From the IMG/VR virus record IMGVR_UViG_3300032240_001531, positions 1 to 64,000 of that record: a stretch of DNA of 64,000 nt. The stretch is one strand, 5' to 3'. The position numbers and the translations under genes are program-made. This stretch comes from a virus (lineage: Duplodnaviria > Caudoviricetes). The notes under the pieces were generated by a model, which ran no database searches, was not told the DNA's origin, and saw only the letters and a list, made by a program, of their open reading frames with translations. Below are positions 4,593-62,110 of the stretch, one piece after another. Positions within the stretch are counted from its first letter, which is position 1, and each line of letters begins with the position of its first letter.

Positions 4593-4933
4593 TGGCTGAA
4601 AAGAAAAAAGCAACCGCAAGTAAAGCTAAAACTAAAGCCGGTACTACTAAAGACGGTAAAAAGGTTTATGGACCGTTTAAAGGCTCTGCTAAGAACGGTG
4701 GGCGTCCTATGATGTCTGTTGTGAATAAAGATGGTTCTCGTACATCTATTGATGCTGCTAAGTACAAGTACGAGAAGAAAACAGGCAAGAAGTTGCCTAA
4801 AGGTACCGACGTTGACCACAAGGACAACAACCATTCTAATGACAGCATGTCTAACCTTCGCCCTATGAAGCACGGTAAGAACACTGCTAAAGAGAACAAG
4901 CGTCGTGCAGGTAAAAAAGAAAACGACAAATAA
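4592..4933 (+). CDS. HNH-motif protein
   Basis: DVDHKDNNHSNDSMSNLRPM..GKN matches the HNH pattern. Confidence 0.75.
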   Translation: MAEKKKATASKAKTKAGTTKDGKKVYGPFKGSAKNGGRPMMSVVNKDGSRTSIDAAKYKYEKKTGKKLPKGTDVDHKDNNHSNDSMSNLRPMKHGKNTAKENKRRAGKKENDK

Positions 4934-5034
4934 TTCGGTTTAGATAAGAAATCTGAAACAACTCACGCCATACTTATTACTATGGCGTTCCGATCAAGCG
5001 TCTTTAAATCTATCTCTAGAGAAAGTATAAATCA

Positions 5035-7456: not shown

Positions 7457-7498
7457 ATTTAAACTGCTAAACTTAAAAAAAAGGAATAGGATTTAATT

Positions 7499-8458
7499 AT
7501 GGCTGATAACACCGAAAAATCTGCTGCCGAAGCTATGGCAGGCTCACAAAGTAAAGGTACCAGTTACTTAAAAGATTTGCTTAAATTTAGTACTTTCTCT
7601 GGTAATAACCGTAATAACTCTGGCTCAAACTCAGGTAGTTCATCCTCTAGCTCTAGCTCTACAGTAGGTGGGCAAGGTACAACCGGTAATGGTTGGACTG
7701 CTGAGGACTATAAGAACCACAATGAATATAAGCAAAATGAGCACGCAAGAAGCCAAGACGCTGAAAATAACGCATATGTTCGTGGAGAATCCGTTAAAGA
7801 TAACGACCTTATTCGCACAAACGCCGCGGAAAAAGCAAGGCATAAAAGAAGCCAAGAAGCGGAGAATAACTCGTATATTCGCGGAGAGTCTGTTAAAGAT
7901 AACGACCTTGTTCGTACAAACGCCGCAAAAAATGCAAAATATGCTCGTAAAGAGTTGCAAAGAAACAACGATGTTACTCGTAATAACACAATACTTGAAA
8001 ATGCAAAAAAGAACGGCCAAGTATCTAGCATAGATGTTGATCACAAAAGTGGCCGCCAACAGATTAGATTTAACGATTCTCCGGTTAGAGAAACTAACCC
8101 AGGAAATGGCGCAGGTAACCAAGGCGGAAGCACACAGCAAAGTCAACCTGGCGGTAGAAAAGCTCCTGCTGGTAAAGGTAAGCCTAAAGTAGACAACCCT
8201 TTTGAAACTCGTTTTCTTGATGAAGGCGCTAAAAACAGCCAAGATTACTTAGGTGATACTCGAAAGAAGAGTGAGTGGGCGACCATCGATAAGAAAAACC
8301 GTAGAGATGTTGCTAATAGTTACGTTACTAAAGGCGATAAGCTAACTCCAGCGCAAAAGAGACAAAATACTGCTGCTAGGTCATACGCAACCCCTTTTAA
8401 GCCAGGCACCACTGCCGGACAAGCTAAGGCTGGCAGTACTCGTGGAAAAAAGGCTTAA
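7499..8458 (+). CDS. Hydrophilic low-complexity protein with a 33-aa tandem repeat
   Basis: Ser-rich N-terminus; 99-bp duplication at 7741-7938. Confidence 0.75.
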   Translation: MADNTEKSAAEAMAGSQSKGTSYLKDLLKFSTFSGNNRNNSGSNSGSSSSSSSSTVGGQGTTGNGWTAEDYKNHNEYKQNEHARSQDAENNAYVRGESVKDNDLIRTNAAEKARHKRSQEAENNSYIRGESVKDNDLVRTNAAKNAKYARKELQRNNDVTRNNTILENAKKNGQVSSIDVDHKSGRQQIRFNDSPVRETNPGNGAGNQGGSTQQSQPGGRKAPAGKGKPKVDNPFETRFLDEGAKNSQDYLGDTRKKSEWATIDKKNRRDVANSYVTKGDKLTPAQKRQNTAARSYATPFKPGTTAGQAKAGSTRGKKA

Positions 8459-28321: not shown

Positions 28322-28333
28322 GAGGAAAAATAA

Positions 28334-28963
28334 ATGGCACAGAGCGCAATTTCACGCTTTTCAAAACTACAAACTGACCCTTTAAGAAACTTTAGGTTCA
28401 TTGTTGATTTCCGTATAAATGGAGATACTGGTGTACCAGGTTCATCTGCTGCCGGTGTAAACAGCTTCTTGAAGTTCAAGGGTGGGTTTACATCTGTATC
28501 AGGTCTAGGTATGACTATTGATGGAATTAGCTATCGTGAAGGTGGTATGAATACATCTCTACACCAACTTCCTGGTCGCGTAACTTTCCAGCCAATCACT
28601 CTTTCACGCGGTGTAATCTTAGGCCAGAGCGAAGGTATTAACTGGTTTAAACAGTTGTTTGCTGCTAGCTCTGGTGAAGGTATTGCTGGAGTAGATGGTT
28701 CATCATTCCGCTGTGATATGGATATCTACGTACTAGACCACCCAGCTACTGGTGCTCCTGCTATTAGCGCCTCAGACATCATTAATAAGTCTTCTTACAA
28801 GATGAAGTTTATTGTGCACAACGCGTGGATTTCAGGCCTTAGCTATTCAGACCTAAGCGCTTCTGACAACTCATTGATGTATGAAACTATGACTTTGGTT
28901 CACGAAGGTCTATCAGTTCAGCTAGCTAACTTTGGTTCAAACGTATCAGCTACACTAACGTAA
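28334..28963 (+). CDS. Tail tube protein (T4 gp19-like)
   Basis: DPLRNFRF, SYREGG, ITLSRG, LVHEG. Confidence 0.9.
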   Translation: MAQSAISRFSKLQTDPLRNFRFIVDFRINGDTGVPGSSAAGVNSFLKFKGGFTSVSGLGMTIDGISYREGGMNTSLHQLPGRVTFQPITLSRGVILGQSEGINWFKQLFAASSGEGIAGVDGSSFRCDMDIYVLDHPATGAPAISASDIINKSSYKMKFIVHNAWISGLSYSDLSASDNSLMYETMTLVHEGLSVQLANFGSNVSATLT

Positions 28964-29013
28964 TTTAACATTTAAAATCTGATAAAATAGCTATATCTAA
29001 TTAGGAGTACAAC

Positions 29014-29814
29014 ATGGCAAACAATATCTCTAACGACCCAAACCTTATTTCCCAGTACGCACAGGATTTGGAAAAAGGTCCAGAGTCCGAAATTAAAACC
29101 GTTGCACCGTCAAACTCGAATGTAATTCTTCCGGGTGGGTTCTTGGCTAAGGATGGTTCTTTGATTAAATATGGTGAAGTTCGTGAGTTAAACGGCATGG
29201 ATGAAGAAGCTGTATCAAAGGCTGGTTCTGCCGGTAAGGCGCTTGCTGCAATGTTGCAGCGAGGCGTAATTTCTATTGGAGCTAACGCAGTAGATAAGGC
29301 AGACCTTGACCAATTATTGAGCGGTGACCGAGACGCTTTGTTGATCGGTATTCGTCGAGTTACTTTTGGCGATACCGTTGACTATGAGTTCCCTTGCCCA
29401 CACTGTAACACTGATTTAGAAGTAGCTGTTGATTTGGTTAAAGATGTCCCTGTCAGGGAGCTTGAAGACCCAATCAATGACAGAACTTTTACATACATGT
29501 CTAAAAAACATGGAGCAATCGTAGTAGGTCTTCCTACTGGGGCTGCTCAAAAGAAACTTGTTGAAAACTCTGATAAGACAAATTCAGAGCTCAACACCAT
29601 CTTACTCGCTTCATGTCTCAAATCAATAAACGGTGAGCCATCATTAGGTGCTAGCACTGCCCTTACATTAGGTATGGCTGACCGTGACGGTGTGATTAAT
29701 GAAATTATTAAGCGTAACCCGGGCCCACGCCTCGGGGAGGTGAAGACGACTTGCGAGGCTTGTGGTGAGGATATTCCTCTTCCACTGTCGTTAGCTGACT
29801 TGTTTCGTCTATAA
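29014..29814 (+). CDS. Tail assembly chaperone with CxxC motifs
   Basis: Lies between tube and tape measure; LLSGDRDALL, CPHC, CEAC. Confidence 0.8.
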   Translation: MANNISNDPNLISQYAQDLEKGPESEIKTVAPSNSNVILPGGFLAKDGSLIKYGEVRELNGMDEEAVSKAGSAGKALAAMLQRGVISIGANAVDKADLDQLLSGDRDALLIGIRRVTFGDTVDYEFPCPHCNTDLEVAVDLVKDVPVRELEDPINDRTFTYMSKKHGAIVVGLPTGAAQKKLVENSDKTNSELNTILLASCLKSINGEPSLGASTALTLGMADRDGVINEIIKRNPGPRLGEVKTTCEACGEDIPLPLSLADLFRL

Positions 29815-29950
29815 AGAAAAAGATTACGAACAACTACTCGACCAATATGAAGCACTATCTAGAACATTTCCCGGCTGGACGCTGTCTGACATCAGAAGTT
29901 TGTCCGTAAGAGAACGTAGAAATTGGCTGTCTAGGGCAGCCCGTAAATAA
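29804..29950 (+). CDS. Chaperone C-terminal extension (+1 frame, no start codon of its own)
   Basis: YEQLLDQYEALSRTFPGWTLSDIRSLSVRERRNWL resembles the typical gpT/GT segment. Confidence 0.7.
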   Translation, partial: FVYKEKDYEQLLDQYEALSRTFPGWTLSDIRSLSVRERRNWLSRAARK

Positions 29951-29959
29951 AGGTAGAAC

Positions 29960-32146
29960 ATGGCGGCGAGTGTAAAAAGCTCTTTTGGTTTAGGCGGAGG
30001 TACATCTAAAACCCGCCTAGTCGCTGACCTTAACGACGAATATAAAAAGCTTAATATTACCCTTAAAGAAACTGAAAAGTTATCTAAAAGCATTGCTGGT
30101 AATTTACAAAACTCTGGTAAAAAACGTCGTGGTGGCGGTGCTTCTTCCATGTCGGAACCTAGTGAACCGCCAGAGCCAGGAGAGCCGGGTGGACCAGGCG
30201 GTCCGGGTGGAGGGCCGCGAGGCGCTAGTGCCTCTGGTTCTAATGCAGGTAGTTGGGCTTCTGCCGTAAAAACAATGGCAGGTGCAGCAGTTACTGCCCT
30301 TGCTACGGGTGTTGATGGCGAGCAATATATAACCAACGATATAGCCCGTCGTCGTTTTGGTTTTTTTCAAGGGTCGTATAGTAGAAAAAATGACAATATT
30401 GGTACCATAGGTGGCGGATTTGCGTTTGCTTCTATGTCCAGTCGCGGTACCCCTATTAGTGCTATGGATGCCGCTAATGCAACTATGGCCGGTAACTCTA
30501 TGGGCCTTATGTCTGGCCTTAAAAACTATAACACCATTATTAACAGCACAGCCGGTATCTCTAACGTAATGCCTGGTGTTGGCCTTGAAGGCGGTATGAA
30601 TGCGCTAAGCGCCCTTAACCAAGGCTCAAGTATTAATAAGCTTCGTATGATTGGTATTAACGTACGCGACCAAAATGGTTTTATGCGTAATGTTGAGGAT
30701 ATTGCACGCGATCTTTGGCGTTCACTAAATGGAAGTAAATCTGGAACTGCGCGAATTACTGAAGCTGATTTGTCATACTCTTTGCAAGCAGGTAACTCAG
30801 TGGCCATGTTGCTTGACCAGTACTTTGGAACAGATGCTGTTCTTAAACAATCTATTATTTCTTACCTATTTCAATTTGCTAAAAATAATGGCGCAAAAGT
30901 TGGCGGCGGGTATCAAACTGAAGCGGGTAAAAAAGAACTTCTTACTACCGGTGCTAACCCGGGTATTACTCAAAGTATTGGTCGTAGAAATGCCGCAGGT
31001 AGTGCAAACGTAAACGCTTATACTTCAGGTGGTGTTTTAGGTATTCAAGGCGCTAATGATTTAATTACAAGTTTTACTACAATGGCTACAGCAATGATGC
31101 CTTTAATGGAAAGTTTAGTTACAACAACCACGTTTAGCCAAACTCTAGGTGGAGCAAGTAATGGCACCGGAGGTATCCTTATTAAAGGACTTATTGATGC
31201 AGCTAAAGGTACCGTTGATGTTTCTCTGGAAGGCATTAAAGCAATTAAATATGTTGCTTTAGCCGCAGCAGTTGCTTTGGGTGTGGGAGCTATATCTAGA
31301 AACGTTACGCAACAACGTGATGAGCAATGGTACAAGGACATTATGTCTGGTAAGAGCACTCCTGATAGCGGAACTTCTGCTTGGGCAGGTAGCGGTTGGG
31401 ACGTAGGAATTTTAGGTAGTTTGATGCTTAATCAAAACTACGACAACAGCTTGAATGGCACTAACGGAATGACCCCCAACGGAACTTCAGGTACGGGTGA
31501 TAACGGATTTCCTGGAGGAAGCCCTACTGGCGGGGGTGGCGGTGGAAGCACAATTATTCCTAAACCTAAAAAAGAAACTCATAACTCTTCCGAACGACGA
31601 AATCAAAAACTTCATCCTAAAGGATTTAAACAGTCTAACGACAGCATTTTAGGGTGGGCTGGAAAAGTACTAAAAGGCATGGGCGCTCCGGTAACTAAAT
31701 CAAATTTAGCTGCTATGGTATCTTGGATTCAAACCGAAAGTACCGGTAAAAATAATTATCAAACTTGGAATAACCCATTAAATACTACCCGCTCTGATGA
31801 TAATTCTATACCAGTAAATTATGCGGGATGGTCATTATCAAACCCAAATGGTGGTGTGCAAGAATTTGCTAATGAAGATGCCGGAATTGCGGCGACTATT
31901 GCAACTTTGCAACAGGATAATTTTAAAGATATTGCTACTGTGTTTAAAAAAGATAAAGGCATAGAAGCATTAAATGTAGCTGTAAAAGCCGACCAATGGG
32001 GTAGTCCATCAATTACACCAGTAAAAAATATTACTATTAATGTTAATGGTGCTCAAGATACCGTAGGAATCGTAGAAGCTATTAAACAATATTTAGCTGA
32101 TGAAGCAATTAAAGATGAGGCTAGAGGCTCAGGAGGAGGACACTAA
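29960..32146 (+). CDS. Tape measure protein with C-terminal lysozyme-like domain
   Basis: Ala/Gly-rich helical body; WIQTES...NNPLNTT; position. Confidence 0.8.
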   Translation: MAASVKSSFGLGGGTSKTRLVADLNDEYKKLNITLKETEKLSKSIAGNLQNSGKKRRGGGASSMSEPSEPPEPGEPGGPGGPGGGPRGASASGSNAGSWASAVKTMAGAAVTALATGVDGEQYITNDIARRRFGFFQGSYSRKNDNIGTIGGGFAFASMSSRGTPISAMDAANATMAGNSMGLMSGLKNYNTIINSTAGISNVMPGVGLEGGMNALSALNQGSSINKLRMIGINVRDQNGFMRNVEDIARDLWRSLNGSKSGTARITEADLSYSLQAGNSVAMLLDQYFGTDAVLKQSIISYLFQFAKNNGAKVGGGYQTEAGKKELLTTGANPGITQSIGRRNAAGSANVNAYTSGGVLGIQGANDLITSFTTMATAMMPLMESLVTTTTFSQTLGGASNGTGGILIKGLIDAAKGTVDVSLEGIKAIKYVALAAAVALGVGAISRNVTQQRDEQWYKDIMSGKSTPDSGTSAWAGSGWDVGILGSLMLNQNYDNSLNGTNGMTPNGTSGTGDNGFPGGSPTGGGGGGSTIIPKPKKETHNSSERRNQKLHPKGFKQSNDSILGWAGKVLKGMGAPVTKSNLAAMVSWIQTESTGKNNYQTWNNPLNTTRSDDNSIPVNYAGWSLSNPNGGVQEFANEDAGIAATIATLQQDNFKDIATVFKKDKGIEALNVAVKADQWGSPSITPVKNITINVNGAQDTVGIVEAIKQYLADEAIKDEARGSGGGH

Positions 32147-33552
32147 TGGCGGGAAATACTAGCAGCTCAGCAAGCGCAAGGTCTATGGGCTACATTACAA
32201 GCACTAATGCTAATAACACTATTGTAAACGTATATGTAGATAGTTCATCTTATGCTGTGGGTGATACCTCTACAACTATGTCAGCATCAGTTAATTATGA
32301 AGTTAGCCCTGGAATTACTACTTCTTTAAAGAAGAGCTATAAGTATGTTCCGACTGTGCCAAACGCGTCTGGCAAATTCTTTTTTGATTCAGTTACCCCT
32401 GGCTTATCTACTAAAGACGGAACATCTATTCAAACTATTGGTTCGCCTATTAAACTTACTAAAGGTAATGGGTCAATCACTCCTTCTATAACTTATGGAG
32501 ATATTACAAAAGTAGTTCCTAGGTTTGACCAAAAAATAAACGCTACCTCTGACAATAAGTTTAATGTTAAAGTTCCCGTAGCTCCAGCAAATCCTGGGGA
32601 GTACCAGTGGAATTTGCCGCCACACAAATGGAGTATGCCTAGATTTGCTAGCTCAGACCCTAATAACATGCCTCCTGAAAACCACAAGCCTGCTTCAGAT
32701 GACCGCTATCGCAGAGGCCGTATTTGGTGGAGAGCCACAGACAATTCTTTGAGCACTATCGATGGCAACGGTAAAACTACAAAAATTGATAATGCTGACC
32801 GTAAGTATGGCTTCCAGTTTTTGTGGAATCCTACAAGTTTTGGTACAAGCGTGTCTGTTCAAATGGATGCTACGCCAAACGTTAATGACCGTTTCCTAGG
32901 TCAAGTAGGCGCTTTCCCTGCTACTGAATCTATATCATTTACTATTGAAGTTAACCGTATAAATGACTTTGCTTGCGCAAACGCTATATTTAAACGCCCT
33001 GATAATATTGGTAGTGCGCTAGGTAATCCTGGAACTAATAACTTTATTACAGAAGCTGATGTAGCTAAATTTGTTCCTTACTATTCAAACAACGGAAGTT
33101 TTACCGCATCTTTGCTTAAAAATGGTCGTTTAAAAACTGTTGAAAAAAAGCTTGTTGACCTATTTCAACGCGGAACTTTAGCAGATATTGAATATTTATA
33201 CACTGCTATCAATGGTCCAGGTCCTGGAAGCACCGCAGCCGGTGGAGATTATTGGAAAAATGGTCGTGGTATAATTACTGCTGACATTGGTTTCTTAATG
33301 CCTACACTATTAAATATTGATATAGGCCCATTATCTTATTTAGGTTACGTAACTAACATGGCTGTTACACATACTATGTTTACCCAAGATATGATTCCAA
33401 TTCAAAGCACAGTGCAAGTTGCGTTTAATCTACTGGCTACTGCTGGCCTTACTACTGCTAGTGTTAGTGCTGATATTAGCAATGCTGGTGGTTCTGGAGG
33501 CCAAGGTTATTCTGGTGGCGGTAGCGGCGGCGGCGGCGGAGGAGGTATTTAA
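32146..33552 (+). CDS. Tail tube initiator/baseplate protein
   Basis: FQFLWNPTS and GYVTNMAVTHTMF..DMIP pattern of tube initiators. Confidence 0.7.
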   Translation: MAGNTSSSASARSMGYITSTNANNTIVNVYVDSSSYAVGDTSTTMSASVNYEVSPGITTSLKKSYKYVPTVPNASGKFFFDSVTPGLSTKDGTSIQTIGSPIKLTKGNGSITPSITYGDITKVVPRFDQKINATSDNKFNVKVPVAPANPGEYQWNLPPHKWSMPRFASSDPNNMPPENHKPASDDRYRRGRIWWRATDNSLSTIDGNGKTTKIDNADRKYGFQFLWNPTSFGTSVSVQMDATPNVNDRFLGQVGAFPATESISFTIEVNRINDFACANAIFKRPDNIGSALGNPGTNNFITEADVAKFVPYYSNNGSFTASLLKNGRLKTVEKKLVDLFQRGTLADIEYLYTAINGPGPGSTAAGGDYWKNGRGIITADIGFLMPTLLNIDIGPLSYLGYVTNMAVTHTMFTQDMIPIQSTVQVAFNLLATAGLTTASVSADISNAGGSGGQGYSGGGSGGGGGGGI

Positions 33553-33553
33553 A

Positions 33554-33838
33554 ATGGCAGCACCATCTAATGATTCAAGGTACTACGATGCTACTGTAGA
33601 TTACTTTGCTACAAAACCTAATGGCGAAAATGCGCCAGTCTTACTCTATGATTTTAGCGAGTTTGGTGCACTGAACTATATTGATTATGAATGGAAAAAT
33701 GGGGACCGCTTAGATAATTTAGCCACTAAGTTTTTCTTGTTTCCTACTCGCTGGTGGATTATTGCTGAATTTAACCCTAAGATTTCAGACTGGTTGAACG
33801 TACCTGCCGGCACAAACATTAGGATTCCACGTGTCTAA
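33554..33838 (+). CDS. LysM/tail-X-like baseplate protein
   Basis: GDRLDNLA..F....WWIIAEFNP...PAGTNIRIP. Confidence 0.85.
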   Translation: MAAPSNDSRYYDATVDYFATKPNGENAPVLLYDFSEFGALNYIDYEWKNGDRLDNLATKFFLFPTRWWIIAEFNPKISDWLNVPAGTNIRIPRV

Positions 33839-35141
33839 TTACGTTACCGTTAACTTTCCAACTAGTGCTACACAACCTAAAAGAGTGTATAGAGTAAGTC
33901 TTACTCAAGAGATTTTTGCTCATGATTATGCAACTGTTGAATTTAGAGACTGGAACTTAGACCCGTTAAACATTAAACCTGGTTCTTTAATGATACTTAC
34001 AATTAAAGGCAAAGACTACCACGGTTATGTGCATGATTTACAAGGTAGCCAATCTGCTACTAAAAGCTTTACAAAAGTAGGTTTTATTGGTGCATCATAT
34101 GTTATGAAACAGGCTAGCCAAAAGATTTATCAAAACATGTCTGCCGATCAAATAGTTGCGGAAATAGCAAAGAAATATAATTTTGCGTATAAAGTTACTC
34201 CGCATCCTCGTATATATTCTCAGGTAGCTCAAGCTGGTATGACTGACTGGGAGCTTATGGTGCGCCTTGCTAAACAGTCTGGTTACTTTTTAAGAGCTGA
34301 AAATACTGAAATTTACTTTCAACCACTTACTGAAGACTTTACTAATCTTATTACAGAAGCTGTAAGTTTTCAAAAAGCCGATGGTGGGTTTAAACCTACA
34401 AACCCTATTTATTCATTTAAAACCGTTATTAGTGAAACTTTAAGACAGTTTGGGTTTAAAAAAGCGGCTACTTCAGTAGCTGGTGTAAATCCCGCTACCG
34501 GTCAAGAGTTTAAAATAACTACTCAAACTTCTTTTAATCCTAGCCGTCAATTCTCTAATCAAGAGTTTTTTGATGACCATGCTACTGATGTAGTTGCTAA
34601 TGACTACCAGACCGCTAACCAATTAGCAAATGCTTCTGATGAATACAGTAGATTTCCTTATGCGGCTAAAGTACAAACCATTGGTGTGTCGTCTATGAGA
34701 CCATGTTTACCTGTGTATCTTAAGAATGTTGGGGCAGAATATTCTGGCTATTGGACAGTACTTAGTGTTACCCATGAAGTTGTAGAAGATAACTTAAATC
34801 AACAAATGTATACCTGTGAGTTAATGGTAGCGTCTGACTCTCTTGGTAGGGCATCTGACATTAGAATACCTGAAGTGCCTTCTGTCAACCCAACAAAAAG
34901 GCTTATACCAAATCAAAGAAATACTAATGTTAAACCTAAAACTATTATAAATTTGCCTACAATTACTACTAAACGTTATCAGCAAACAGAACTTGTAACT
35001 AGAATTAACCGAGCTGCTCAGACTGGTCCTTTCGTAGCTACTTCTCGTTGGGGTTCTACTCACCGTGATTTAAATTATAAAATAGTAGACGAACGTATGC
35101 CACAAGCTGTATGGGCAAAATTGAGGTCTAATGCAATCTGA
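33831..35141 (+). CDS. Baseplate hub (gpD/VgrG-like)
   Basis: QAGMTDWELMVRLAK, YSGYWTV..VTH. Confidence 0.85.
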   Translation: MSNYVTVNFPTSATQPKRVYRVSLTQEIFAHDYATVEFRDWNLDPLNIKPGSLMILTIKGKDYHGYVHDLQGSQSATKSFTKVGFIGASYVMKQASQKIYQNMSADQIVAEIAKKYNFAYKVTPHPRIYSQVAQAGMTDWELMVRLAKQSGYFLRAENTEIYFQPLTEDFTNLITEAVSFQKADGGFKPTNPIYSFKTVISETLRQFGFKKAATSVAGVNPATGQEFKITTQTSFNPSRQFSNQEFFDDHATDVVANDYQTANQLANASDEYSRFPYAAKVQTIGVSSMRPCLPVYLKNVGAEYSGYWTVLSVTHEVVEDNLNQQMYTCELMVASDSLGRASDIRIPEVPSVNPTKRLIPNQRNTNVKPKTIINLPTITTKRYQQTELVTRINRAAQTGPFVATSRWGSTHRDLNYKIVDERMPQAVWAKLRSNAI

Positions 35142-35823
35142 TATTAAATACCATGGGATTTACCGCGGCGTAGTAGTAGCTACTAATGACCCTGAAAACC
35201 TAGGCAGAATTACTTTAAGGGTTCCACAAGTTTTTGGTACTGAAGTAACTAACTGGGTTTACCCTATTGTTGGGGGGCCTAAAAATAATAAAATACCTTA
35301 TGGTTCTTTTTATGACACTACTACTCAAACTTTAACAGGAGCTAATACGCCCAAAGCAATTACTCTTAATACAACAGATAAAAGTAACGGAGTTACTATT
35401 GGGGCACCAACCTCTAAAATTATATTTAAATACGCTGGAACATATAATGTTCAATTTTCTGCGCAAGTAGCAAATAATGGAACTGGTATTGCAAATCTTT
35501 GGTTACGTAAAAATGGCACAGATGTGCCTTGGACTAATGGTGAAGTAACAACCTCAAATACAAACCATCACGTCCTTCCTGCTTGGAATTATGTATTAAC
35601 TTTGGCTGCTAACGATTATCTTGAATTTGTTTGGATGAGCAATGATGCGGCTAATACCCTAGAGGCACAGGCGGCAACTACCTCCCCTGCATCTCCGGGG
35701 GTACCTTCAATGATTGTTACCGCCACGCTTGTCGGTAATTTTTTACCTTCCTCCGGAGACCCTTGCTGGGTTATGTTCGAAGGCGGAGACCCCAATTTTC
35801 CACTATGGTTAGGAACATTCTAA
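35131..35823 (+). CDS. Baseplate spike gp5/gpV OB-fold protein with internal C1q/BclA-like insert
   Basis: GIYRGVVV..NDPENLGRI.LRVPQV ... P..GD.CWVMFEGGDPNFPLW. Confidence 0.8.
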   Translation: MQSDIKYHGIYRGVVVATNDPENLGRITLRVPQVFGTEVTNWVYPIVGGPKNNKIPYGSFYDTTTQTLTGANTPKAITLNTTDKSNGVTIGAPTSKIIFKYAGTYNVQFSAQVANNGTGIANLWLRKNGTDVPWTNGEVTTSNTNHHVLPAWNYVLTLAANDYLEFVWMSNDAANTLEAQAATTSPASPGVPSMIVTATLVGNFLPSSGDPCWVMFEGGDPNFPLWLGTF

Positions 35824-36242
35824 TGGCAATTAATGTAATCAATTATCCATTTTCTTTAAGCAAAAACATTGCTGGTACTTATATTAATACAGTCGCAGCT
35901 ACTACTGACCCTAAGAAAATATGGCAGCAACGAGTGTTGTTAGTGTTAGGAACTAGGCCAGGAGAACGCTTAATGCGCCCTGATTTTGGCAGTAATTTGC
36001 ATACTGTTGTATTTGAACCAGAAGCTACTGCTGGTCAAATAGCTAAAGATAGTATTACCCGAGCATTTAACGATTGGTTGCCAAGCCTTGAATTACGCCA
36101 AATTAGCCCGTCATTTAACCCAACTACAGGAACTTTAACCGTAAGTATTACCTATGGACTGCCCAACGGAGAGGCAGATAGTGTTACAATTAATACTGGA
36201 ATATTCAACCGTTCTGGTGACTTGCTTCAGGAGATTAACTAA
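35823..36242 (+). CDS. Baseplate wedge gp25/gpW-like
   Basis: LGTRPGERLMRPDFGS. Confidence 0.9.
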   Translation: MAINVINYPFSLSKNIAGTYINTVAATTDPKKIWQQRVLLVLGTRPGERLMRPDFGSNLHTVVFEPEATAGQIAKDSITRAFNDWLPSLELRQISPSFNPTTGTLTVSITYGLPNGEADSVTINTGIFNRSGDLLQEIN

Positions 36243-38482
36243 TGGCTACTAACGTTAGCGTTACTAAAAACTATATTCCGCAAATTGACTACGTCTCACG
36301 TGACTATACAGCAATTTTAACGGACTTAACTGCTATCGCTAAGCAATTCAACCCTACCTGGGCTGTTAGCGACCCTAGTGATATTGGTGTAGCACTCCTT
36401 GAAACATTTGCATACCTTGGCGACATTCTTAGCTTTTACACTGACCGCATGGCTTCTGAAGGGTTTTTAGGTACCGCTAGCCAACGCGCCAGCGTTTTGC
36501 AAATTGCAAACATGCTTGGATATACTCCTACCCCAAGTAGCGCAGCTACTGTATCTTTATCTATTAAAAACAATAACACTAGCGGAACTTTAACAATTCC
36601 GGCGGGTACTCAAGTTGCTTCTACAACCAATGTTAATGGGCAAAGCACTCAAGTAGTATTTGAGCTTGACTCTGATGTGTCTGTAGCGTTTGGTGCTACA
36701 GTCAATACAACTGCTACTCAAGGCATTACAACTACTGACGAATCACTTGGAACCTCTAATGGAACACCAAGTCAAGTATTTAAGATTTCTCAAGCTGGCG
36801 TCGTAATTAATAGCACTGGAAGTAATATTACTGTCAAAGTTGGCGGTGTTCCGTATACATACAGTTCTGCTCTTGTAGACAATAACCCTTATGATTCGTC
36901 TTTTACAACAAACATGGACTCAGATGGCTATACCTACATCGTGTTTGGTGACGGAGTTGGTGGACGTATTCCACCCGCAACTTACACAATTACGGTTACC
37001 TACCGTACCGGAGTTGGTTCAGCCGGAAATATTGCTTTAGGTTCTTTAGCTGAAAAAACTCTTACTGGTAGCTACAACGTAACTGTTGCTCAGCTTAACG
37101 CTGGTACTGGTGGCGCAGACCTTGAGTCTACTGACTCTATTAGAGTTAACGCACCTAGAGCATTAAGAACTTTACGTCGTGCAGTGTCTTTAAAAGATTA
37201 TGGTTATCTGGCTCTTCAAGTAACTGGAGTATCTAAAGCTAACGCAGATGCTTCTGTCTGGTCTAGCGTAAATCTATATATAGCACCTTTTAGCAGTAGT
37301 GCTGTAAATACCTATGGCCCATTTACTAATGTTACTGCTGTAGCTGAAACGGCAAGCGATAGTACTGCCGGTACGGGTTATCTAACTTACACTATTGCAA
37401 CTACAGGCCTTGTTACTAATCAAAGCTACGTAACAGTTACGGGATGTACCTGGGCTACTTATGACATAGTCACCCCTACCATGGTTACATATGCAGACAC
37501 TACAAAATTTACTGTGGCTAAGCCTTCTGGAATTACCACACTTCCTAATAAATCAGGAGTTACTGCCGGCCCTAATGCTATAGTTACTGCTACTGGCGGT
37601 AACACTGACGCTTTTACTACTCTTAAAACAGATGTAGTTAACTACTTTACAGATAAAGTTGCACCTAACGTTAGCTTATCTGTATTACCCCCTACATATG
37701 TTCCTGTTAACCTTAATATGACTTTGCACGTGCTGCCACAATACAGCCAAGCATCAGTAGTAACCCAAGTTCAAAATGCCCTATCTAATTTAGTTTCTTA
37801 CAATAACTCATTTTTTGCTGATAGGGTTCCTCCGCACTTTGTTCTAAATGCTATTACAAATATTGACGGTGTTGACTATGCCACTATTGAACACTTACGT
37901 AAAAACTCTAATGAACAACGCTATTGGGTTTATTACTACACTCGTACTGCTGGTACTGCCACATTATTTTTTCCAAATAACCACAACATTATTGCAGGAC
38001 AAATAATCACAATATCTGGCGTATCTACTTTTGACGGCACATACGCCGTAAACTCCGTCACTACTAACTCAGTAACAATTACAGTACCTGCGGGTACAGC
38101 AACACCTTCGGGAGTTACATCATCAGCTGTGACGGTTCCTGGAACTAATACAATTCCTATTACAACCCCTGCTTCTAAAGGAATTGTAGCTGGTATGTAT
38201 GTTACTGGAACTAACGTACCTACTGGCACATACAACCCAGCAATAGTTACATCGGTTGGTGCAAGCTCAATTACTATTGATCAAACTATTGGTTCTGTTA
38301 CAGCAAGCGGTACAGCTCTTTCATTTAGCTGGCCTCCTAGCACATACTTAAACTTAGCTTCTGTAACAGCAATAGATTCAACTACTTCAAATGGAGTTGT
38401 TACATCTGGAATTGTTTGTGCCGCTAATGAAATTCCTATTAAAGGTACATTCACTATTGCTGCTACTGGCGGACTTCAATAA
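36242..38482 (+). CDS. Baseplate J/gp6-like wedge protein
   Basis: IDYVSRDY, FGDGV.GRIP, RAVSLKDY. Confidence 0.9.
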   Translation: MATNVSVTKNYIPQIDYVSRDYTAILTDLTAIAKQFNPTWAVSDPSDIGVALLETFAYLGDILSFYTDRMASEGFLGTASQRASVLQIANMLGYTPTPSSAATVSLSIKNNNTSGTLTIPAGTQVASTTNVNGQSTQVVFELDSDVSVAFGATVNTTATQGITTTDESLGTSNGTPSQVFKISQAGVVINSTGSNITVKVGGVPYTYSSALVDNNPYDSSFTTNMDSDGYTYIVFGDGVGGRIPPATYTITVTYRTGVGSAGNIALGSLAEKTLTGSYNVTVAQLNAGTGGADLESTDSIRVNAPRALRTLRRAVSLKDYGYLALQVTGVSKANADASVWSSVNLYIAPFSSSAVNTYGPFTNVTAVAETASDSTAGTGYLTYTIATTGLVTNQSYVTVTGCTWATYDIVTPTMVTYADTTKFTVAKPSGITTLPNKSGVTAGPNAIVTATGGNTDAFTTLKTDVVNYFTDKVAPNVSLSVLPPTYVPVNLNMTLHVLPQYSQASVVTQVQNALSNLVSYNNSFFADRVPPHFVLNAITNIDGVDYATIEHLRKNSNEQRYWVYYYTRTAGTATLFFPNNHNIIAGQIITISGVSTFDGTYAVNSVTTNSVTITVPAGTATPSGVTSSAVTVPGTNTIPITTPASKGIVAGMYVTGTNVPTGTYNPAIVTSVGASSITIDQTIGSVTASGTALSFSWPPSTYLNLASVTAIDSTTSNGVVTSGIVCAANEIPIKGTFTIAATGGLQ

Positions 38483-49558: not shown

Positions 49559-49591
49559 AAAAAACCCCCTGCTAAACAACAGGGGGTTTTT
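49559..49591. terminator. Bidirectional intrinsic terminator
   Basis: AAAAACCCCCTG-loop-CAGGGGGTTTTT between convergent operons. Confidence 0.85.
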
Positions 49592-49600: not shown

Positions 49601-49969
49601 TTAAGCCAATGGCTCTTCTTCTTCAGGGGCATCTACATGGTCTGTTAGTTCTGTTAGATCACCAAAGTCAGCAAGTTCTGGAGTTTCAGCAGCTGATTCT
49701 TCTAGTGCTTGTTTAACTTCAGGGTCATTTGCTGATTGTTTTGCAACAGCAGCACGGAAACCTTTTTCAATGTCTTCGTTTGAAATGTTTGCATCCCAAG
49801 CTAGTTGAACACCAAAGTAAATGATGATTGATGAGAATACGGTAGCAACACCATTCAAAGCACCAAGTACTGGACCAATGCCTGATGCAGCACCAGTAGC
49901 CATACCTGGAATTGCAGCAAACATGACCACACCAATAGTGCGCTTAATTAAATTACCAAGTGCTTTCAT
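49601..49969 (-). CDS. Membrane protein (holin candidate), paralogue of 52414-52710
   Basis: Two hydrophobic segments; MKxxGN..R..A..G..G and DxxIxxxxIxxxF. Confidence 0.65.
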   Translation of the reverse strand: MKALGNLIKRTIGVVMFAAIPGMATGAASGIGPVLGALNGVATVFSSIIIYFGVQLAWDANISNEDIEKGFRAAVAKQSANDPEVKQALEESAAETPELADFGDLTELTDHVDAPEEEEPLA

Positions 49970-50493
49970 TATTTAACCTCTTGCTTACAAGTTGGGCAAA
50001 CCTTTGGGTCTGCGTGGACTGGGGCAGCTACTGGCTTAGCGGCTGGTTTAGCAGCTTTTTGCTTTGCAATCTGACCTTTAATGTATTCGTGAGCATTGTA
50101 AACTTTGCCACCAAACACGCCTTCGGCAGAGCCGCTTAGTGTAAAGTGCAAGTGACAGCCAAAACTGGCTGAACCTGTGTTACCTGCTTTACCAACTACG
50201 TCGCCTGACTTCACGACTGTTCCAACCTTAAGTGGTGATGGTTCATTCATGTGGCAGTAACCAAAGTAGTGGCCATTATCTGTTTGTAGTACAACAACGT
50301 TACCAAGAACGGTGCTTTTTGCTAAAGGTCTATTAAGTACGATTGTTCCATCATTTACAGCAAGCAAAGGCTCGCCAACAGGGAAACCGTTATAATCGGT
50401 TCCACGATGACCTGGGGCTTTGTGCCACTGGTCTACTGCGCCAAATAGTGATCCGAGTTTGACCTTCTTTACCGGGAAAATCCAGTTACCCAT
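49969..50493 (-). CDS. M23 peptidase (endolysin candidate)
   Basis: HRGTD, YCHM, GNTG.S.GCHLHF. Confidence 0.9.
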   Translation of the reverse strand: MGNWIFPVKKVKLGSLFGAVDQWHKAPGHRGTDYNGFPVGEPLLAVNDGTIVLNRPLAKSTVLGNVVVLQTDNGHYFGYCHMNEPSPLKVGTVVKSGDVVGKAGNTGSASFGCHLHFTLSGSAEGVFGGKVYNAHEYIKGQIAKQKAAKPAAKPVAAPVHADPKVCPTCKQEVK

Positions 50494-50542: not shown

Positions 50543-50704
50543 TTAGTCTTTATTTCGCAGGGGGAACGTAGCTACCCATATAACTAATGAGCCGATAATA
50601 CACCAGCCAACTACTGCCTTAGCAGAGCCTTCTAGTACAATCCAGGCAACAAACATGCCTAAAAGAGTCCATATTTGGCCTATAAGGTCATTTAAAAATT
50701 TCAT
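50543..50704 (-). CDS. Small 2-TM membrane protein (53 aa)
   Basis: MKFLNDLIGQIWTLLGMFVAWIVLEGSAK; ATGA overlap. Confidence 0.7.
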   Translation of the reverse strand: MKFLNDLIGQIWTLLGMFVAWIVLEGSAKAVVGWCIIGSLVIWVATFPLRNKD

Positions 50705-50976
50705 TTGTCTTTCCTTCGGCTAGAACCTGCTGAATTTGATGCTGCACTTGCCGCACTTTGAGCAGCCATAGATGCAGCTTGTGTTGCAACCTGTGTAACA
50801 ATAATTGCGGAAATAACTACCTTTTGTGCTTTTGCTCGCACAGCAGGAGGTAGGTCTGCACCAATGTTACCCAAAGCATTAAACGCATCCGCTAATCCTT
50901 GAAATGCTGCCCCCAACAATGGAATATCTGCAACTGGATTATTGTTGTTAAATTCCTTTGGGGGTATTATTTTAAA
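50701..50976 (-). CDS. -1 frame extension of the PA14 protein carrying a membrane anchor
   Basis: Frame opens exactly at T-TTA-AAA; hydrophobic VVISAIIVTQVA segment and basic tail RRKDK. Confidence 0.65.
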   Translation of the reverse strand, partial: FKIIPPKEFNNNNPVADIPLLGAAFQGLADAFNALGNIGADLPPAVRAKAQKVVISAIIVTQVATQAASMAAQSAASAASNSAGSSRRKDK

Positions 50977-52430
50977 TTAATTACAAACGCTTGCCTAGGA
51001 AGGTACGCACCATCGGCAAAATACTTTGGGTTGTTCTTTTTTGACCGTCTCTTATCAGCAGCAGTAGGCTTTGGGATGTTTGCTAAATCTACTTTTGCCT
51101 GAGCAACTTTGATTTCTAAGTCATCTACTTGTTGTGCCGCAGATTCAATAGCAGCAAATGTGCTGCTGTATTGGGCTTTTAAGTCACGCAAGTTAGCATC
51201 AGCTTCTACTTTGGTATCGCTACTGTTTTGCCAAACAACTTCGGCATTACTCATAACATCTTCTAAAGGCCTAAGTATCTCTCGTTTACTCGCTAAAGCA
51301 CTACCAGCATATCCATAGGTAATTTGCTTACCGTCATAGTCATCACAAGCATTTCCATAAACTACACTTGCCTGTTCTTCAGCGGCTACTGCCTGAACAT
51401 AAAGAACAGTCTTAGTGTTTAAAATAGCCAACAGTGCTGGGTCTTTAACCATGGTGACTACTGCATCTTGTGTAAAGAACGATGAAGGGGCAACTGTATA
51501 AGAGCTACCGCCTAATGGCTTGTAGTAAAGACTAGAACAAGCACCGCCAGTCCACTCGTAGAACCACGCGTCAATAGCGTAAGACTTACCACCAGTGAAA
51601 GAAAATAGTCCAGTTGAGTTTGCTCCACAGCCCTTTAATGACCAGTCATTGATTACCTGAGTTCCGTTGATAGACATGTAGAAACCGTCATCGGCAGGAG
51701 CCTGGAAGTAAACCTTAGTGGTTGTTGGGTATGTGATGTAACCCTTGTAGTGAAGCATGATGTAGTCAGAGCCACAACCTAGAATGTCACCGCCACCCCA
51801 GTTAAGGTCAATGTTGCTTACAGTAGTTGTCTTACACTTGGTGTAAACAGTATCTGACTTCTGTGGAGGGTTTCCATAACGACCGATACCTGTGTAGACA
51901 TCTACCTTCAAACCTGCACTACTGCCCTGACCACCAGCGTTGATTAACTTGGTGTCATAGTCATTTTTAGCCTGATTCATAACAGCTTGAGCGTTGTCGG
52001 CATTCTGCTGGGCTATTGCGTAAGAATCATAAGTATAATCTACTACATCAGCAGCAGCGTTTACTGCGGCTACTGCCTGAGCAACTGCTGCTTCAGCAGC
52101 ACGAACATCAGCAAAAACAACATCATAATTAGCTTTTTTGCCATTGTAATCAGCAACAGCAGCGTCTAAAGCATCTTTTGCCTCAGTAGCGGCAGTTTGA
52201 GCAGAGTTAATAAGGTCAGCCTGAGAGTTAGATGAGTTAGTCCAGCTATCAAGGTTAGCCTGTGCGTTGTTTAATTGATTCTGAAGGTCTTGTACCTTTG
52301 CTTGCGCCTCGGCAACTTTTTGGTTATAGTCAGTTGTGCTATCAGCCATAGCAGGGCTAGACAACCCAAACATAAGAAATAGTGAAGTTGCGGCTACAAA
52401 TAAAGTAGAGAACTTACGCATTTTTTTCAT
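50967..52430 (-). CDS. Secreted coiled-coil protein with central PA14 domain
   Basis: Signal peptide ending AMA; IDLNWGGG, ADDGFYMSING, WFYEWTGGA. Confidence 0.85.
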   Translation of the reverse strand: MKKMRKFSTLFVAATSLFLMFGLSSPAMADSTTDYNQKVAEAQAKVQDLQNQLNNAQANLDSWTNSSNSQADLINSAQTAATEAKDALDAAVADYNGKKANYDVVFADVRAAEAAVAQAVAAVNAAADVVDYTYDSYAIAQQNADNAQAVMNQAKNDYDTKLINAGGQGSSAGLKVDVYTGIGRYGNPPQKSDTVYTKCKTTTVSNIDLNWGGGDILGCGSDYIMLHYKGYITYPTTTKVYFQAPADDGFYMSINGTQVINDWSLKGCGANSTGLFSFTGGKSYAIDAWFYEWTGGACSSLYYKPLGGSSYTVAPSSFFTQDAVVTMVKDPALLAILNTKTVLYVQAVAAEEQASVVYGNACDDYDGKQITYGYAGSALASKREILRPLEDVMSNAEVVWQNSSDTKVEADANLRDLKAQYSSTFAAIESAAQQVDDLEIKVAQAKVDLANIPKPTAADKRRSKKNNPKYFADGAYLPRQAFVINLK

Positions 52431-52710
52431 TGGTTTTTTCCTTTTCATTTTCGACATTTTTTAAAGATACGGTTTGCTGGAAGGCAGCATTAATTTCATT
52501 TAGAGTAAGTTTTCCATCTTCTAAGAAAGCCAAAGCAAGCAGTTCAACTACTTTAGCTACGGCCATTACACCGCCCATTACAGCGCTAAACCAGATAGGA
52601 ATTTGGATACCGCTCATAGAGCCGGCGACTGTACCCGCACCGATTACGCCCAGTGCTGAGGCGACAAATGTTGCAAGTACACGCAACATTACATTGCCAA
52701 AAAGTTTCAT
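52414..52710 (-). CDS. Membrane protein
   Basis: 2-3 TM segments then FLEDGKLTLNEINAAF. Confidence 0.75.
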   Translation of the reverse strand: MKLFGNVMLRVLATFVASALGVIGAGTVAGSMSGIQIPIWFSAVMGGVMAVAKVVELLALAFLEDGKLTLNEINAAFQQTVSLKNVENEKEKTNEKNA

Positions 52711-52956: not shown

Positions 52957-53484
52957 ATGAAAAAGTACGTAATTATAGCCAGCATACTTGTAACACTTGC
53001 TGGTTGTTCCGCCTCTACAGCAACAGCTGTAGCTCAAATTACACAAGAAACAAAGCAACATCAAGTTAAACCATTAACCTTAATTGAGACAGCTAAAGCA
53101 CACCGCAATACTGCTCAAATGAGGCATGTAGTTAAGTATCTGAAAACTCGCGTAGGAAAAACATCTTATGTGTTTTCAGGTGCCAGTCCCCGTGGATGGG
53201 ACTGTTCAGGTCTAGTACGCTGGACCTATGAACGATTCGGTATAGTATTACCGCACTCGGCAAATGCCCAAGGGCATATTGGAACCCGCGTCTCAAAACC
53301 AAAACTTGGAGACATAGTTGTGTTTGCTTATAACGGCAGCACTAATTTCTATCACGCCGCCATTTACATTGGAAATGGAAAAATAATTAATGCACATCGT
53401 GGAGCTAACGCTACGATAATTCAACCGCTTACAGATTACAAAAGCGGGCAAATCCGATTTGTCCGTATAGTAAAAACACTGTAA
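52957..53484 (+). CDS. NlpC/P60 cell-wall peptidase, lipoprotein
   Basis: Lipobox LAGC; YVFSG..P.GWDCSGLV; HAAIYIGNG. Confidence 0.9.
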   Translation: MKKYVIIASILVTLAGCSASTATAVAQITQETKQHQVKPLTLIETAKAHRNTAQMRHVVKYLKTRVGKTSYVFSGASPRGWDCSGLVRWTYERFGIVLPHSANAQGHIGTRVSKPKLGDIVVFAYNGSTNFYHAAIYIGNGKIINAHRGANATIIQPLTDYKSGQIRFVRIVKTL

Positions 53485-53564: not shown

Positions 53565-53960
53565 ATGGCATACATCGGAGATAAAAAACGCGTCTATCAA
53601 AACACTTGGCTTAATTTACGCAGGCTTGCTTGGATTGAATCACAAGGCGGCAAATGCGTTAAATGCGGTTCTGAAGAGCGTTTAGAGATAGACCATATTA
53701 ATAGACATGAAAAGTCTATGAAAATATCAGCTTTGTGGTCCAGGTCAGCCAGTGTTCGTGAAGTTGAATTAAGCAAATGTCAAGTACTTTGCCATACTTG
53801 CCACAAAGAAAAGACTATTGCCGAATCTACTACGGCTAAATGCGGTCAAATAGCTATGTATAATAAAGGCTGTAGATGTGACGAGTGTAGAGAAGCCAAC
53901 CGATTGCGTGTAAGTAAAGGTAGGGAATTAAAAAAACAACGTCTTAATACGCCCCTATAG
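53565..53960 (+). CDS. HNH endonuclease, leaderless
   Basis: CVKCG...LEIDHI...CQVLCHTCH; TGGTACACT lies 6 nt before ATG. Confidence 0.85.
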   Translation: MAYIGDKKRVYQNTWLNLRRLAWIESQGGKCVKCGSEERLEIDHINRHEKSMKISALWSRSASVREVELSKCQVLCHTCHKEKTIAESTTAKCGQIAMYNKGCRCDECREANRLRVSKGRELKKQRLNTPL

Positions 53961-54022
53961 CTCAACGGCAGAGCGCCGCTCTTGTAAAGCGGAGGTTGTG
54001 ATATCGTAATTCACTGGGGGCT
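53951..54022 (+). tRNA. tRNA-Thr(TGT) with atypical T arm
   Basis: Acceptor GCCCCTA/TGGGGGC, D arm GCTC/GAGC, anticodon arm CCGCT-CTTGTAA-AGCGG. Confidence 0.8.
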
Positions 54023-54148
54023 CTTTATATAGACAACGTGTATAGTTTCTGCTAAAATCTATATAGGTACGCCAATTGGGTACCGTAAATAATACTGTGC
54101 TACGGGCAGTCAAAGTACCAAGGCACAGTTGTCGTCTAAGGAGACAAC

Positions 54149-54713: not shown

Positions 54714-54784
54714 TGGTTCTAAGTGTTACGGTAGCACGGCGGTCTCCAACACCGCAGGCGTAGGTTCGACTCCTACAGAACCAG
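54714..54784 (+). tRNA. tRNA-Trp(CCA)
   Basis: TGGTTCT/AGAACCA acceptor; GCGGT-CTCCAAC-ACCGC; GTAGG-TTCGACT-CCTAC. Confidence 0.9.
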
Positions 54785-54806
54785 CTTTTTATGGTAAACT
54801 ATAGGT

Positions 54807-61735: not shown

Positions 61736-62110
61736 TTGTCTACCCCGTTTACTAGCTTTCTTTCAGAACCAGACCCTTGGCAATATGAGTCCAAGTGCGG
61801 CACCAGAAGATATGATGATGAAACCAAAGATTATGTATCTGTTTATAATCCAGACCTTTGGTTTCCGCCAAGAGATAAAGAATTATACAAACCAATAGCA
61901 GACAAAGCTAAATCAATTTGTTTTGGCCGTGATGGCAAAGGTGAATGCCCTGTTCGTTTACAATGTTTAATGTTTGCGGATAAGAATGATGAAGTGCACG
62001 GTATCTGGGGCGGCATGAGCCATCGTGAACGAAACGCTTTAAAACGTAAAGCTAAAAAGCAAGGAACTACTTTAGAAGAACTTGCTAAAAAAGCTAGTAG
62101 ACAACCATAG
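61736..62110 (+). CDS. whiB: WhiB-family transcription factor
   Basis: C...WFP...AKSIC...CPVRLQC...GIWGGMS.RER. Confidence 0.9.
   Translation: MSTPFTSFLSEPDPWQYESKCGTRRYDDETKDYVSVYNPDLWFPPRDKELYKPIADKAKSICFGRDGKGECPVRLQCLMFADKNDEVHGIWGGMSHRERNALKRKAKKQGTTLEELAKKASRQP

Follow-up and report, generated by a model that had tools for sequence, protein, structure and literature searches.

We analyzed a stretch of viral DNA (the window; 64,000 nucleotides, positions 1 to 64,000 of the 79-kilobase (kb) virus record IMGVR_UViG_3300032240_001531) and found that a minus-strand gene encoding a PA14-domain surface protein very probably ends in a genuine −1 programmed ribosomal frameshift site. The frameshift likely produces two isoforms that differ by a C-terminal module, and the two are probably a free and a membrane-anchored form of one lectin, made from a single gene. 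The same arrangement had been proposed in an earlier note made from the letters of the window (the original prediction). The argument turns on the following elements:

50967..52457, minus strand: PA14 gene in the 0 frame, an open reading frame (ORF) of 496 codons; homologues begin at Met10 (52430).
50970..50976 (50976-50970), minus strand: slippery heptamer T_TTA_AAA, in the X_XXY_YYZ phase of the 0 frame.
50967..50969, minus strand: TAA stop of the 0 frame, directly after the heptamer.
50701..50976, minus strand: −1 frame extension, 91 codons from the heptamer, with 89 new residues and a TGA stop at 50703-50701.

Read on the minus strand, the 0-frame end of the gene is ...GTA ATT AAT TTA AAA TAA. 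In the −1 frame a TAA lies immediately before TTT AAA, after which the frame is open as far as the TGA at 50703-50701 and ends with the residues RRKDK; the predicted slipped product has 585 residues in total. The original prediction had placed T-TTA-AAA at 50976-50970 right before the stop, which is exact to the base, and its other statements on this site (a −1 frame closed by TAA just upstream, 89 added residues, an RRKDK end) all describe what is present. A stop codon that abuts a slippery heptamer should prolong the ribosomal pause. Heptamers of the form V_VV.A_AA.R are among the most efficient in E. coli and dominate in insertion sequence (IS) elements, and Y_YY.A_AA.R is rated shift-prone, according to Sharma et al. 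(2014; PMC4066793). The window has 95 stop-to-stop ORFs that reach 100 codons or more. An in-phase heptamer is found in the last two codon positions of 3 of them, and in 21 the −1 frame continues for 75 codons or more beyond the stop without closing. Both features coincide in the PA14 gene only, with about 0.7 such coincidences expected by chance. Because a single sequence could show this by chance, the case for frameshifting rests on conservation in related loci.

A scan of viral contigs with the PA14 protein returned 46 related loci, 11 of which were set aside because the contig stops before the gene end (L004, L015, L023, L032, L036, and L041) or the match is limited to the PA14 domain, at 39-42% (L043-L047). 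The comparison set consisted of the window and the remaining 35 loci, which carry 30 different assembly numbers (counted from the names); L060 and L077 were added later, giving 38 loci in our count. In all 36 members of the first set, an in-phase heptamer directly precedes the 0-frame stop or is one codon removed from it, always as TTTAAAA, CCCAAAA, or AAAAAAA. The −1 frame is likewise open in 36/36 and runs for 75-116 codons in the 34 in which it is complete, L011 and L014 running off the contig end. L060 and L077 have the same heptamer and −1 layout, and the truncated loci L061, L062, and L073 are consistent with it. Altogether, X_XXA_AAA is in phase in 38 of the 38 related loci with a complete gene end, so that no homologue lacking the slippery site was found, and the two-frame layout is identical over a range of 46-96% protein identity. 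The −1 frame opens 7-55 nucleotides (nt) before the 0-frame stop, exactly at the heptamer in 12 loci. Protein databases gave the same picture from the other side: 166 homologues of the PA14 protein were found at E ≤ 0.001, and the 120 of these that were listed have 312-522 residues (most 481-502) and all stop at the 0-frame end. Their C-terminal residues are LK (26), PK (63), KK (6), or PK plus one residue (25), and these are the dipeptides encoded by such heptamers.

The history of the heptamer is informative as well. In a maximum-likelihood tree of 35 proteins (L042 was omitted as partial), TTTAAAA forms two separate clades nested among CCCAAAA, and a single origin was recovered in 4% of bootstrap trees; AAAAAAA arose once, as did the one-codon offset. 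Along the tree we count a minimum of 3-4 changes of heptamer type, each of which again produced a perfect heptamer, with three bases altered per switch and no intermediate observed, exactly as predicted by selection for slipperiness.

The extension itself behaves as coding sequence. Across codons 24-73, pairs of sequences that share a residue differ in the codon 40-70% of the time, which indicates purifying selection, and across codons 8-19, ahead of any start codon, amino acids are kept while third positions vary. In none of 34 loci does the −1 frame contain an ATG, GTG, or TTG upstream of the heptamer. From these patterns, the −1 extension is under protein-level selection and is enterable only at the heptamer. 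Contigs assembled from DNA runs also cover this point: a 31-kb contig from DNA run X2 spans the heptamer without an indel there, and contigs from DNA runs X3 and X5, which belong to two other studies, bridge it in the same way. The X3 contig, from a divergent relative, has a compensating pair of gaps 12-16 nt upstream of the heptamer. A blastn search of 50,697 deposited phages with the 3.3-kb module gave no match. In tblastn searches the extension had no hit, and the sole hit of the PA14 protein was to the PA14 domain of Pelagibacter phage HTVC008M (41% identity across 115 residues).

The heptamer is followed by a stable RNA structure:

50910..50964, minus strand: stimulatory hairpin of three stacked helices (CCCCCAA/UUGGGGG, GGAAU/AUUCC, and CAAC/GUUG), starting 5 nt after the heptamer.

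The arms of the outer helix are CCCCCAA 50964-50958 and TTGGGGG 50916-50910 on the minus strand. This stem and its inner GGAAT/ATTCC helix were already part of the original prediction, and they coincide with the minimum-free-energy fold (−17.7 kcal/mol; z −2.39 against dinucleotide shuffles, 2 of 200 of which were equally stable). For 32 distinct sequences we then generated recodings that left the −1 protein unchanged, drawing the synonymous codons according to the codon usage of the locus concerned. The native hairpin was more stable than its recodings in 29/32 (at most 5% of recodings as stable), with a mean z of −3.1. Across sequences the spacer measures 5-6 nt, or 2 nt with extra pairs, and the inner helices vary by clade (CAAC/GUUG, UUUGAG/CUCAAA, GACUGC/GCAGUC, and GAAGACC/GGUCUUU) while the hairpin as a whole persists. 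Several codons at the signal are frozen, namely AAA in 32/32, CCC at Pro5 in 27/27, AAG at Lys7 in 23/23, and GGG at Gly22 in 27/32. The outer helix is built from CCC in one arm and GGG in the other, and both codons are rare, accounting for 3% of Pro and 4% of Gly codons, respectively, in ten long phage genes. In the main clade the stem is invariant rather than covarying, and in distant clades the pairing is displaced by one base. A comparison with Rfam gave nothing better than E 0.47, far short of the gathering scores, and assigned the hairpin to no family. We conclude that the hairpin is under RNA-level selection.

What the shift adds is a module that recurs elsewhere. Its parts in the window, together with the gene that follows, are:

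50764..50820, minus strand: hydrophobic helix of the module, VVISAIIVTQVATQAASMA, with a 19-residue Kyte-Doolittle mean of 1.64.
50704..50718, minus strand: basic C-terminal end RRKDK, whose codons include an AGGA run 7 nt before the ATG of the next gene.
50543..50704, minus strand: TM53, a protein of 53 residues with two hydrophobic segments, whose ATG overlaps the TGA of the extension (ATGA).

A profile built from 32 distinct extensions and searched against 1.84 billion representatives matched 501 cluster representatives at E ≤ 0.001 (139 at E ≤ 1e-10), and the properties given below were counted on the best 150 of these 501. The match ends no more than 10 residues from the C-terminus in 147/150; 112 of the proteins have at least 250 residues and only 16 have 120 or fewer. 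A 19-residue segment with a Kyte-Doolittle mean of at least 1.6 occurs in 135/150 (family median 1.81), at least two Arg or Lys residues occur among the last eight in 146/148 family members, and an N-terminal hydrophobic segment is found in 71 of 101 full-length members. The order of the module is an amphipathic helix, a GAD-LPP-x-VR turn, a hydrophobic helix of about 20 residues, an Ala/Ser-rich tail, and the RRK end; G39, D41, and R47 of the GAD..P.VR turn between the two helices are invariant throughout the family. Searches of Pfam, NCBIfam, and PHROGs assigned the extension to no family, the sole hit being a weak one to Mmc1_C (E 0.042), and a search of the ESM Atlas gave no usable match. 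Two pattern scans of bacterial and archaeal genomes from 185,579 species gave 0 and 1 hits. The single cellular hit, L054, is an 85-kb contig in a metagenome bin labelled Bifidobacterium that has the same gene order, and it is probably a phage contig. Judged by these searches, the module is an undescribed C-terminal domain essentially restricted to viruses. The AGGA in the conserved RRK(D/E)K codons looks by eye like a Shine-Dalgarno sequence, and the basic tail and the neighbor's ribosome-binding site may constrain each other.

The same domain is found joined to PA14 in one frame. Proteins P0126 (514 residues), P0128 (587), P0130 (616), and P0137 (874) all combine PA14 and the module without a shift. 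An alignment of P0126 with the window protein covers 384 residues at 33% identity (E 3e-59), and P0126 takes the corresponding position in its locus, L049, which reads small membrane protein, PA14 plus module (4001-5545), and a TM53 orthologue overlapping by ATGA; the ORF of 267 residues after the TM53 orthologue resembles an M23 peptidase by eye. The original prediction had asked whether homologues keep heptamer and stem or are fused in frame, and both occur, the signal being kept within the clade and other syntenic orthologues being fused. In other members the module is attached to SUEL-lectin or fn3 cargo or to a third cargo type of about 330 residues. Most of these begin like a signal peptide, and a linker rich in Pro, Thr, and Glu typically comes before the module in in-frame proteins. 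Because the extension is a modular domain with a hydrophobic helix and a basic tail, and stands in frame in syntenic orthologues, the reading of a free and an anchored form gains support. In L051, an orthologue with the in-frame layout (about position 3276; on the same contig as L059), an in-frame TAG separates the PA14 part from the linker and module at a place where close relatives have Tyr; this single case could be a nonsense mutation, an error, or a read-through site giving the same two isoforms.

The body of the PA14 protein fits an exposed location. It contains:

52344..52430, minus strand: putative Sec signal peptide, residues 10-38, judged by eye from the translation.
51453..51911, minus strand: PA14 beta-sandwich, residues ~183-335, from Pfam, AlphaFold2, and Foldseek.

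The signal peptide of the original prediction stands as a judgement by eye only, based on a basic n-region, a hydrophobic core of 17 residues, and AMA before D. Its PA14 domain was borne out by Pfam (PF07691; 27.2 bits at residues 212-322, the cut-off being 24) and by a Foldseek search with the AlphaFold2 model of the window protein itself, which matched PA14 sugar-binding domains with an E of 5.9e-9. In this model (mean predicted local distance difference test score, pLDDT, 82.4, and above 90 in the stalk) a helix at 41-169 leads into the beta-sandwich at ~183-335, followed by a second helix at 340-459 and a disordered tail of about 37 residues at 460-496. From their pattern and the high confidence, the two long helices appear to pair into an antiparallel hairpin, and the 129 residues of the first correspond to a stalk of about 19 nm. 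With this geometry the PA14 head would crown the far end of the stalk and the two termini would lie at its foot, so that a tether attached C-terminally would hold the lectin at a distance from the membrane. The model of an in-frame orthologue has the same hairpin and head, followed by a disordered linker and low-confidence helices for the module. Four cysteines in the PA14 head are invariant, which fits an exported protein. The PA14 protein also has a weak match to phrog_739 (E 3.7e-4, residues 17-100), and its gene adjoins that of an M23 peptidase; no lipobox cysteine was seen by eye at the N-terminus, spanins belong to hosts with an outer membrane and the WhiB gene of this genome points to an actinobacterial one, and a reading as a spanin was not adopted.

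Taken together, these data suggest the following mechanism. Ribosomes would decode UUA-AAA with the hairpin at the mRNA entrance and TAA as the next codon. Most would terminate and release a 496-residue precursor with a free, disordered C-terminus, and the short mature form would be released from the membrane after cleavage of the signal peptide. A fraction, which we infer to be fixed, would slip back by one base (UUA to UUU, AAA to AAA) and add 89 residues. In this long form the module would hold the C-terminus in the cytoplasmic membrane through its hydrophobic helix, with the basic end inside, so that the long form would stand on the membrane with its lectin held out through the actinobacterial wall while the short form would be free. 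The proposal of a released and a tethered lectin from one gene is thus supported by the module family and by in-frame syntenic orthologues, and insertion of the module into the membrane is predicted from its features.

Several observations weigh against this interpretation. Taken in one sequence alone, a heptamer with an open −1 frame is not rare enough to convince. The hairpins of L034, L039, and L040 (3/32) are not significantly better than synonymous recodings. When the two outer helices were tested in fixed columns, 86.6% of cells paired, but covariation (0.052) did not exceed the mean of shuffles (0.061), and the RNAalifold consensus retained just 4 pairs. The hydrophobic helix of the window is borderline (1.64) and includes Gln and Thr, and the stretch ahead of it, presumed to face outward, has three basic residues. 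Contigs of relatives from the RNA-library run X20 cover parts of the gene and none of them bridges the heptamer under a 31-letter rule. The trans-frame product is predicted from the nucleotide sequence.

Alternatively, the frameshift may be real and the extension a docking or sorting module that works with TM53 instead of a simple anchor, which we consider unlikely. It might, for instance, mark the protein for processing or for attachment to the wall, or regulate a holin-like lysis partner. TM53 follows the module in 40/42 loci, the other 2 ending at the contig end, and in 16/16 further loci, other cargo included. It is extremely conserved (21 invariant columns of 54), belongs to no family in Pfam or PHROGs, and overlaps the module by ATGA. 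The constant pairing suggests that the module does more than anchor, and TM53 may be its partner. The non-hydrophobic residues G39, D41, and R47 are invariant, and a plain anchor would not need them; besides TM53, an M23 peptidase and a further pair of small membrane proteins are encoded in the operon. Motif, hydrophobic helix, and basic end come in an order reminiscent of C-terminal sorting signals. The module shares with sortase signals the succession of hydrophobic helix and basic end (135/150 and 146/148, respectively), often with a spacer in between, and as in LPXTG-type Gram-positive proteins the overall order is signal peptide, binding domain, Pro/Thr-rich linker (in the in-frame relatives), motif, helix, and basic end. 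An LPXTG sortase signal was nevertheless not adopted, because the alignments show GAD(L/M)(P/S)PxVR followed by a charged stretch and no LPXTG. The module has no other known sorting motif either and matched no sorting-signal family in Pfam, NCBIfam, or PHROGs; it has a helix-turn ahead of its hydrophobic helix and is found almost only on viral contigs. Many members have a variable Ala/Ser/Gly spacer of up to ~35 residues between helix and basic end, which classical signals lack. Docking is in any case compatible with membrane anchoring and not exclusive of it, and we moderately favor plain anchoring as the job of the module.

A shift of frame could also arise during transcription, if RNA polymerase slipped on the A run and added one A to some transcripts. 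Ebola virus toggles between soluble and transmembrane glycoproteins in this way (Atkins et al., 2016; PMC5009743), every heptamer in our set ends in AAAA, and L034 has seven A's. The run is only four long in 37/38 loci, however. The runs known to allow productive slippage in bacteria are much longer than that. Polymerase slippage needs no in-phase homopolymeric XXX, yet TTT, CCC, and AAA are the only triplets seen, nor does it need a hairpin at 5-6 nt with frozen rare codons. We therefore regard it as very improbable, compared with ribosomal frameshifting.

Equally little speaks for the downstream ORF as a separate small gene, with its own initiation or with termination and reinitiation after the PA14 stop. 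Gene callers did predict stand-alone proteins of 50-90 residues (P0122, 82 residues; P0123, 74 residues), and a TTG or GTG is common at codons 19-21 among the loci; in the window, TTG 50919 had been named as a possible independent start. This codon is not conserved. The first start codon of the −1 frame wanders from codon 4 to codon 50, and in L021 and L027 (codon 34), L034 (codon 36), and L024 (codon 50) it falls inside the most conserved part of the extension. No Shine-Dalgarno run was seen by eye in the 18 bases before those start codons, and protein-level conservation takes in codons 3-19, ahead of most of them. The same domain is an in-frame C-terminus in 112/150 of the best family members, syntenic PA14 orthologues included, and a separate gene would leave the in-phase heptamer unexplained. 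The idea of a functionless broken gene or a sequencing or assembly indel, for which a single-base frame change at a homopolymer-rich spot is the classic pattern, is effectively refuted by the identical layout in 38 loci, the purifying selection on both parts, and contigs from three DNA runs that show no indel at the heptamer.

The PA14 gene lies in a five-gene minus-strand operon in which a membrane protein of 98 residues, PA14 plus extension, TM53, an M23 peptidase, and a membrane protein of 122 residues follow one another. Its remaining elements are:

52414..52710, minus strand: small membrane protein of 98 residues, first gene of the operon, an ORF matching phrog_26427 (E 4.5e-21).
49969..50493, minus strand: M23 metallopeptidase, a likely endolysin (Pfam Peptidase_M23, E 2.7e-18; PHROG metallo-endopeptidase and endolysin families).
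49601..49969, minus strand: small membrane protein of 122 residues, an ORF, holin-like by eye.
49560..49591, minus strand: intrinsic terminator-like hairpin of 14 pairs with a T run at the operon end.

An M23 homologue was present in the fetched flank of 31/42 loci, and the 122-residue protein has no family match in Pfam or PHROGs. With its small membrane proteins and its M23 peptidase, the operon may act on the envelope or in lysis; the roles offered in the original prediction (receptor masking, superinfection exclusion, decoy, or adhesion) are conjectural. The contig is that of a myovirus of 42% G+C, with terminase, portal, major head protein, sheath, baseplate, and a family A-like DNA polymerase. 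The sheath and baseplate genes (25595-38482) are distant from the PA14 gene, which belongs to a different operon and is read from the other strand. A frameshift of the tail assembly chaperone (G/GT) type was ruled out by position, the gene not lying between tail tube and tape measure genes. The recoding thus sits outside the usual tail or capsid genes, as the original prediction had it, in what looks like an envelope or lysis operon. The window also contains a WhiB gene (61847-62041, plus strand; 49.1 bits, above the Pfam cut-off). The gene whiB has been used as a marker for phages of Actinobacteria (Kavagutti et al., 2019; PMC6802176), and from it we infer an actinobacterial host. The sequencing runs holding the sequence are labelled freshwater or lake.

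Well-known −1 frameshift sites are those of the lambda-like tail chaperone pair G/GT and of the T7 capsid proteins 10A/10B; in tail chaperones and some capsid genes, −1 frameshifting is textbook knowledge and sets the ratio of two assembly proteins. The PA14 gene resembles these in having an X_XXY_YYZ slip near the end of a phage ORF, which would yield a short and a C-terminally extended product at a set ratio, and in keeping the site across distant phages while the sequence drifts. It differs from them in being a non-virion gene of a minus-strand operon of envelope or lysis type, in its stop codon abutting the heptamer, and in placing a hydrophobic module on an exported protein, so that the two forms would differ in location and not in an assembly role. 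The bacterial −1 sites of IS3/IS1 OrfAB and dnaX (tau/gamma) are alike in their downstream hairpin or pseudoknot; they are of the A_AAA_AAR class, whereas the family of the PA14 gene mostly has UUU or CCC as its P-site triplet and its product is a surface protein; no upstream Shine-Dalgarno stimulator was seen, though none was searched for. There is a functional likeness to Ebola GP (sGP versus transmembrane GP) and arterivirus nsp2TF, where recoding decides on a transmembrane region at a fixed ratio (PMC5009743). Both belong to eukaryotic RNA viruses and differ in mechanism, the former using polymerase slippage on a run of seven and the latter a −2/−1 shift with a protein stimulator, whereas the PA14 gene would rely on −1 slippage by the ribosome in a bacterial DNA phage. 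The PA14 domains of RsgI anti-sigma factors, a Marinomonas ice-binding adhesin, and yeast Flo/Epa proteins (Foldseek E 6e-9 to 2e-8) are likewise shown outside the cell, whereas the window PA14 is predicted to sit at the tip of a long antiparallel helical hairpin.

The mechanism is thus a known one, and the toggling of a membrane tether on an exported phage lectin would, among the cases we took from Atkins et al. (2016; PMC5009743), find its parallels only in eukaryotic viruses. Full-text searches, which did not cover subscription journals, listed no paper in which frameshifting in phages is linked in this way to a PA14 protein or to a gene of a lysis cassette. If our interpretation is true, a frameshift decides whether a lectin stalk keeps its tether, which amounts to a change of location in a non-structural operon. 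The comparative evidence is unusually clean, with three interchangeable heptamers, frozen rare stem codons, and natural in-frame orthologues, and gene callers now split or truncate such PA14-module genes. In a bolder and tentative picture, which we hold to be possible rather than probable, uncultured phages of freshwater Actinobacteria, forming one lineage, would carry a display system made of the module, TM53, and swappable PA14, SUEL, or third cargo. One clade would use a −1 signal to shed some stalks and tether others in a hard-wired proportion, and this would be the first counterpart of Ebola sGP/GP in a virus of prokaryotes. Because this display system sits in a lysis operon, the ratio of shed to tethered stalks may tune lysis timing or keep progeny off wall debris. 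The module and TM53 also offer a way to study how the host envelope is remodeled by phages of freshwater Actinobacteria, which are abundant and hard to culture.

Some further features of the window deserve mention. The first operon protein, of 98 residues, has two hydrophobic segments; phrog_26427 is annotated as a nuclease, an annotation that is probably wrong for that family. Divergent from the operon, 52957-53484 (plus strand) encodes an NlpC/P60-like protein (PHROG tail or lysin families). By eye its N-terminus has a lipoprotein-type signal, LAGC, and the protein would be a second wall hydrolase beside the M23 peptidase. Apart from the PA14 gene, the only long ORFs of the window with a terminal in-phase heptamer are 7490-8458 (plus strand), which ends with A_AAA_AAG and whose −1 frame closes after 2 codons, and the frame of the 98-residue gene, with A_AAA_AAT at its end and a −1 frame that closes after 7 codons; neither is a candidate. 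No tRNA-Lys, tRNA-Leu, or tRNA-Pro bearing on the slippery codons was found in the window, and the tRNA genes seen there are tRNA-Thr(TGT) at 53951-54023 and tRNA-Trp(CCA) at 54714-54785, both on the plus strand.

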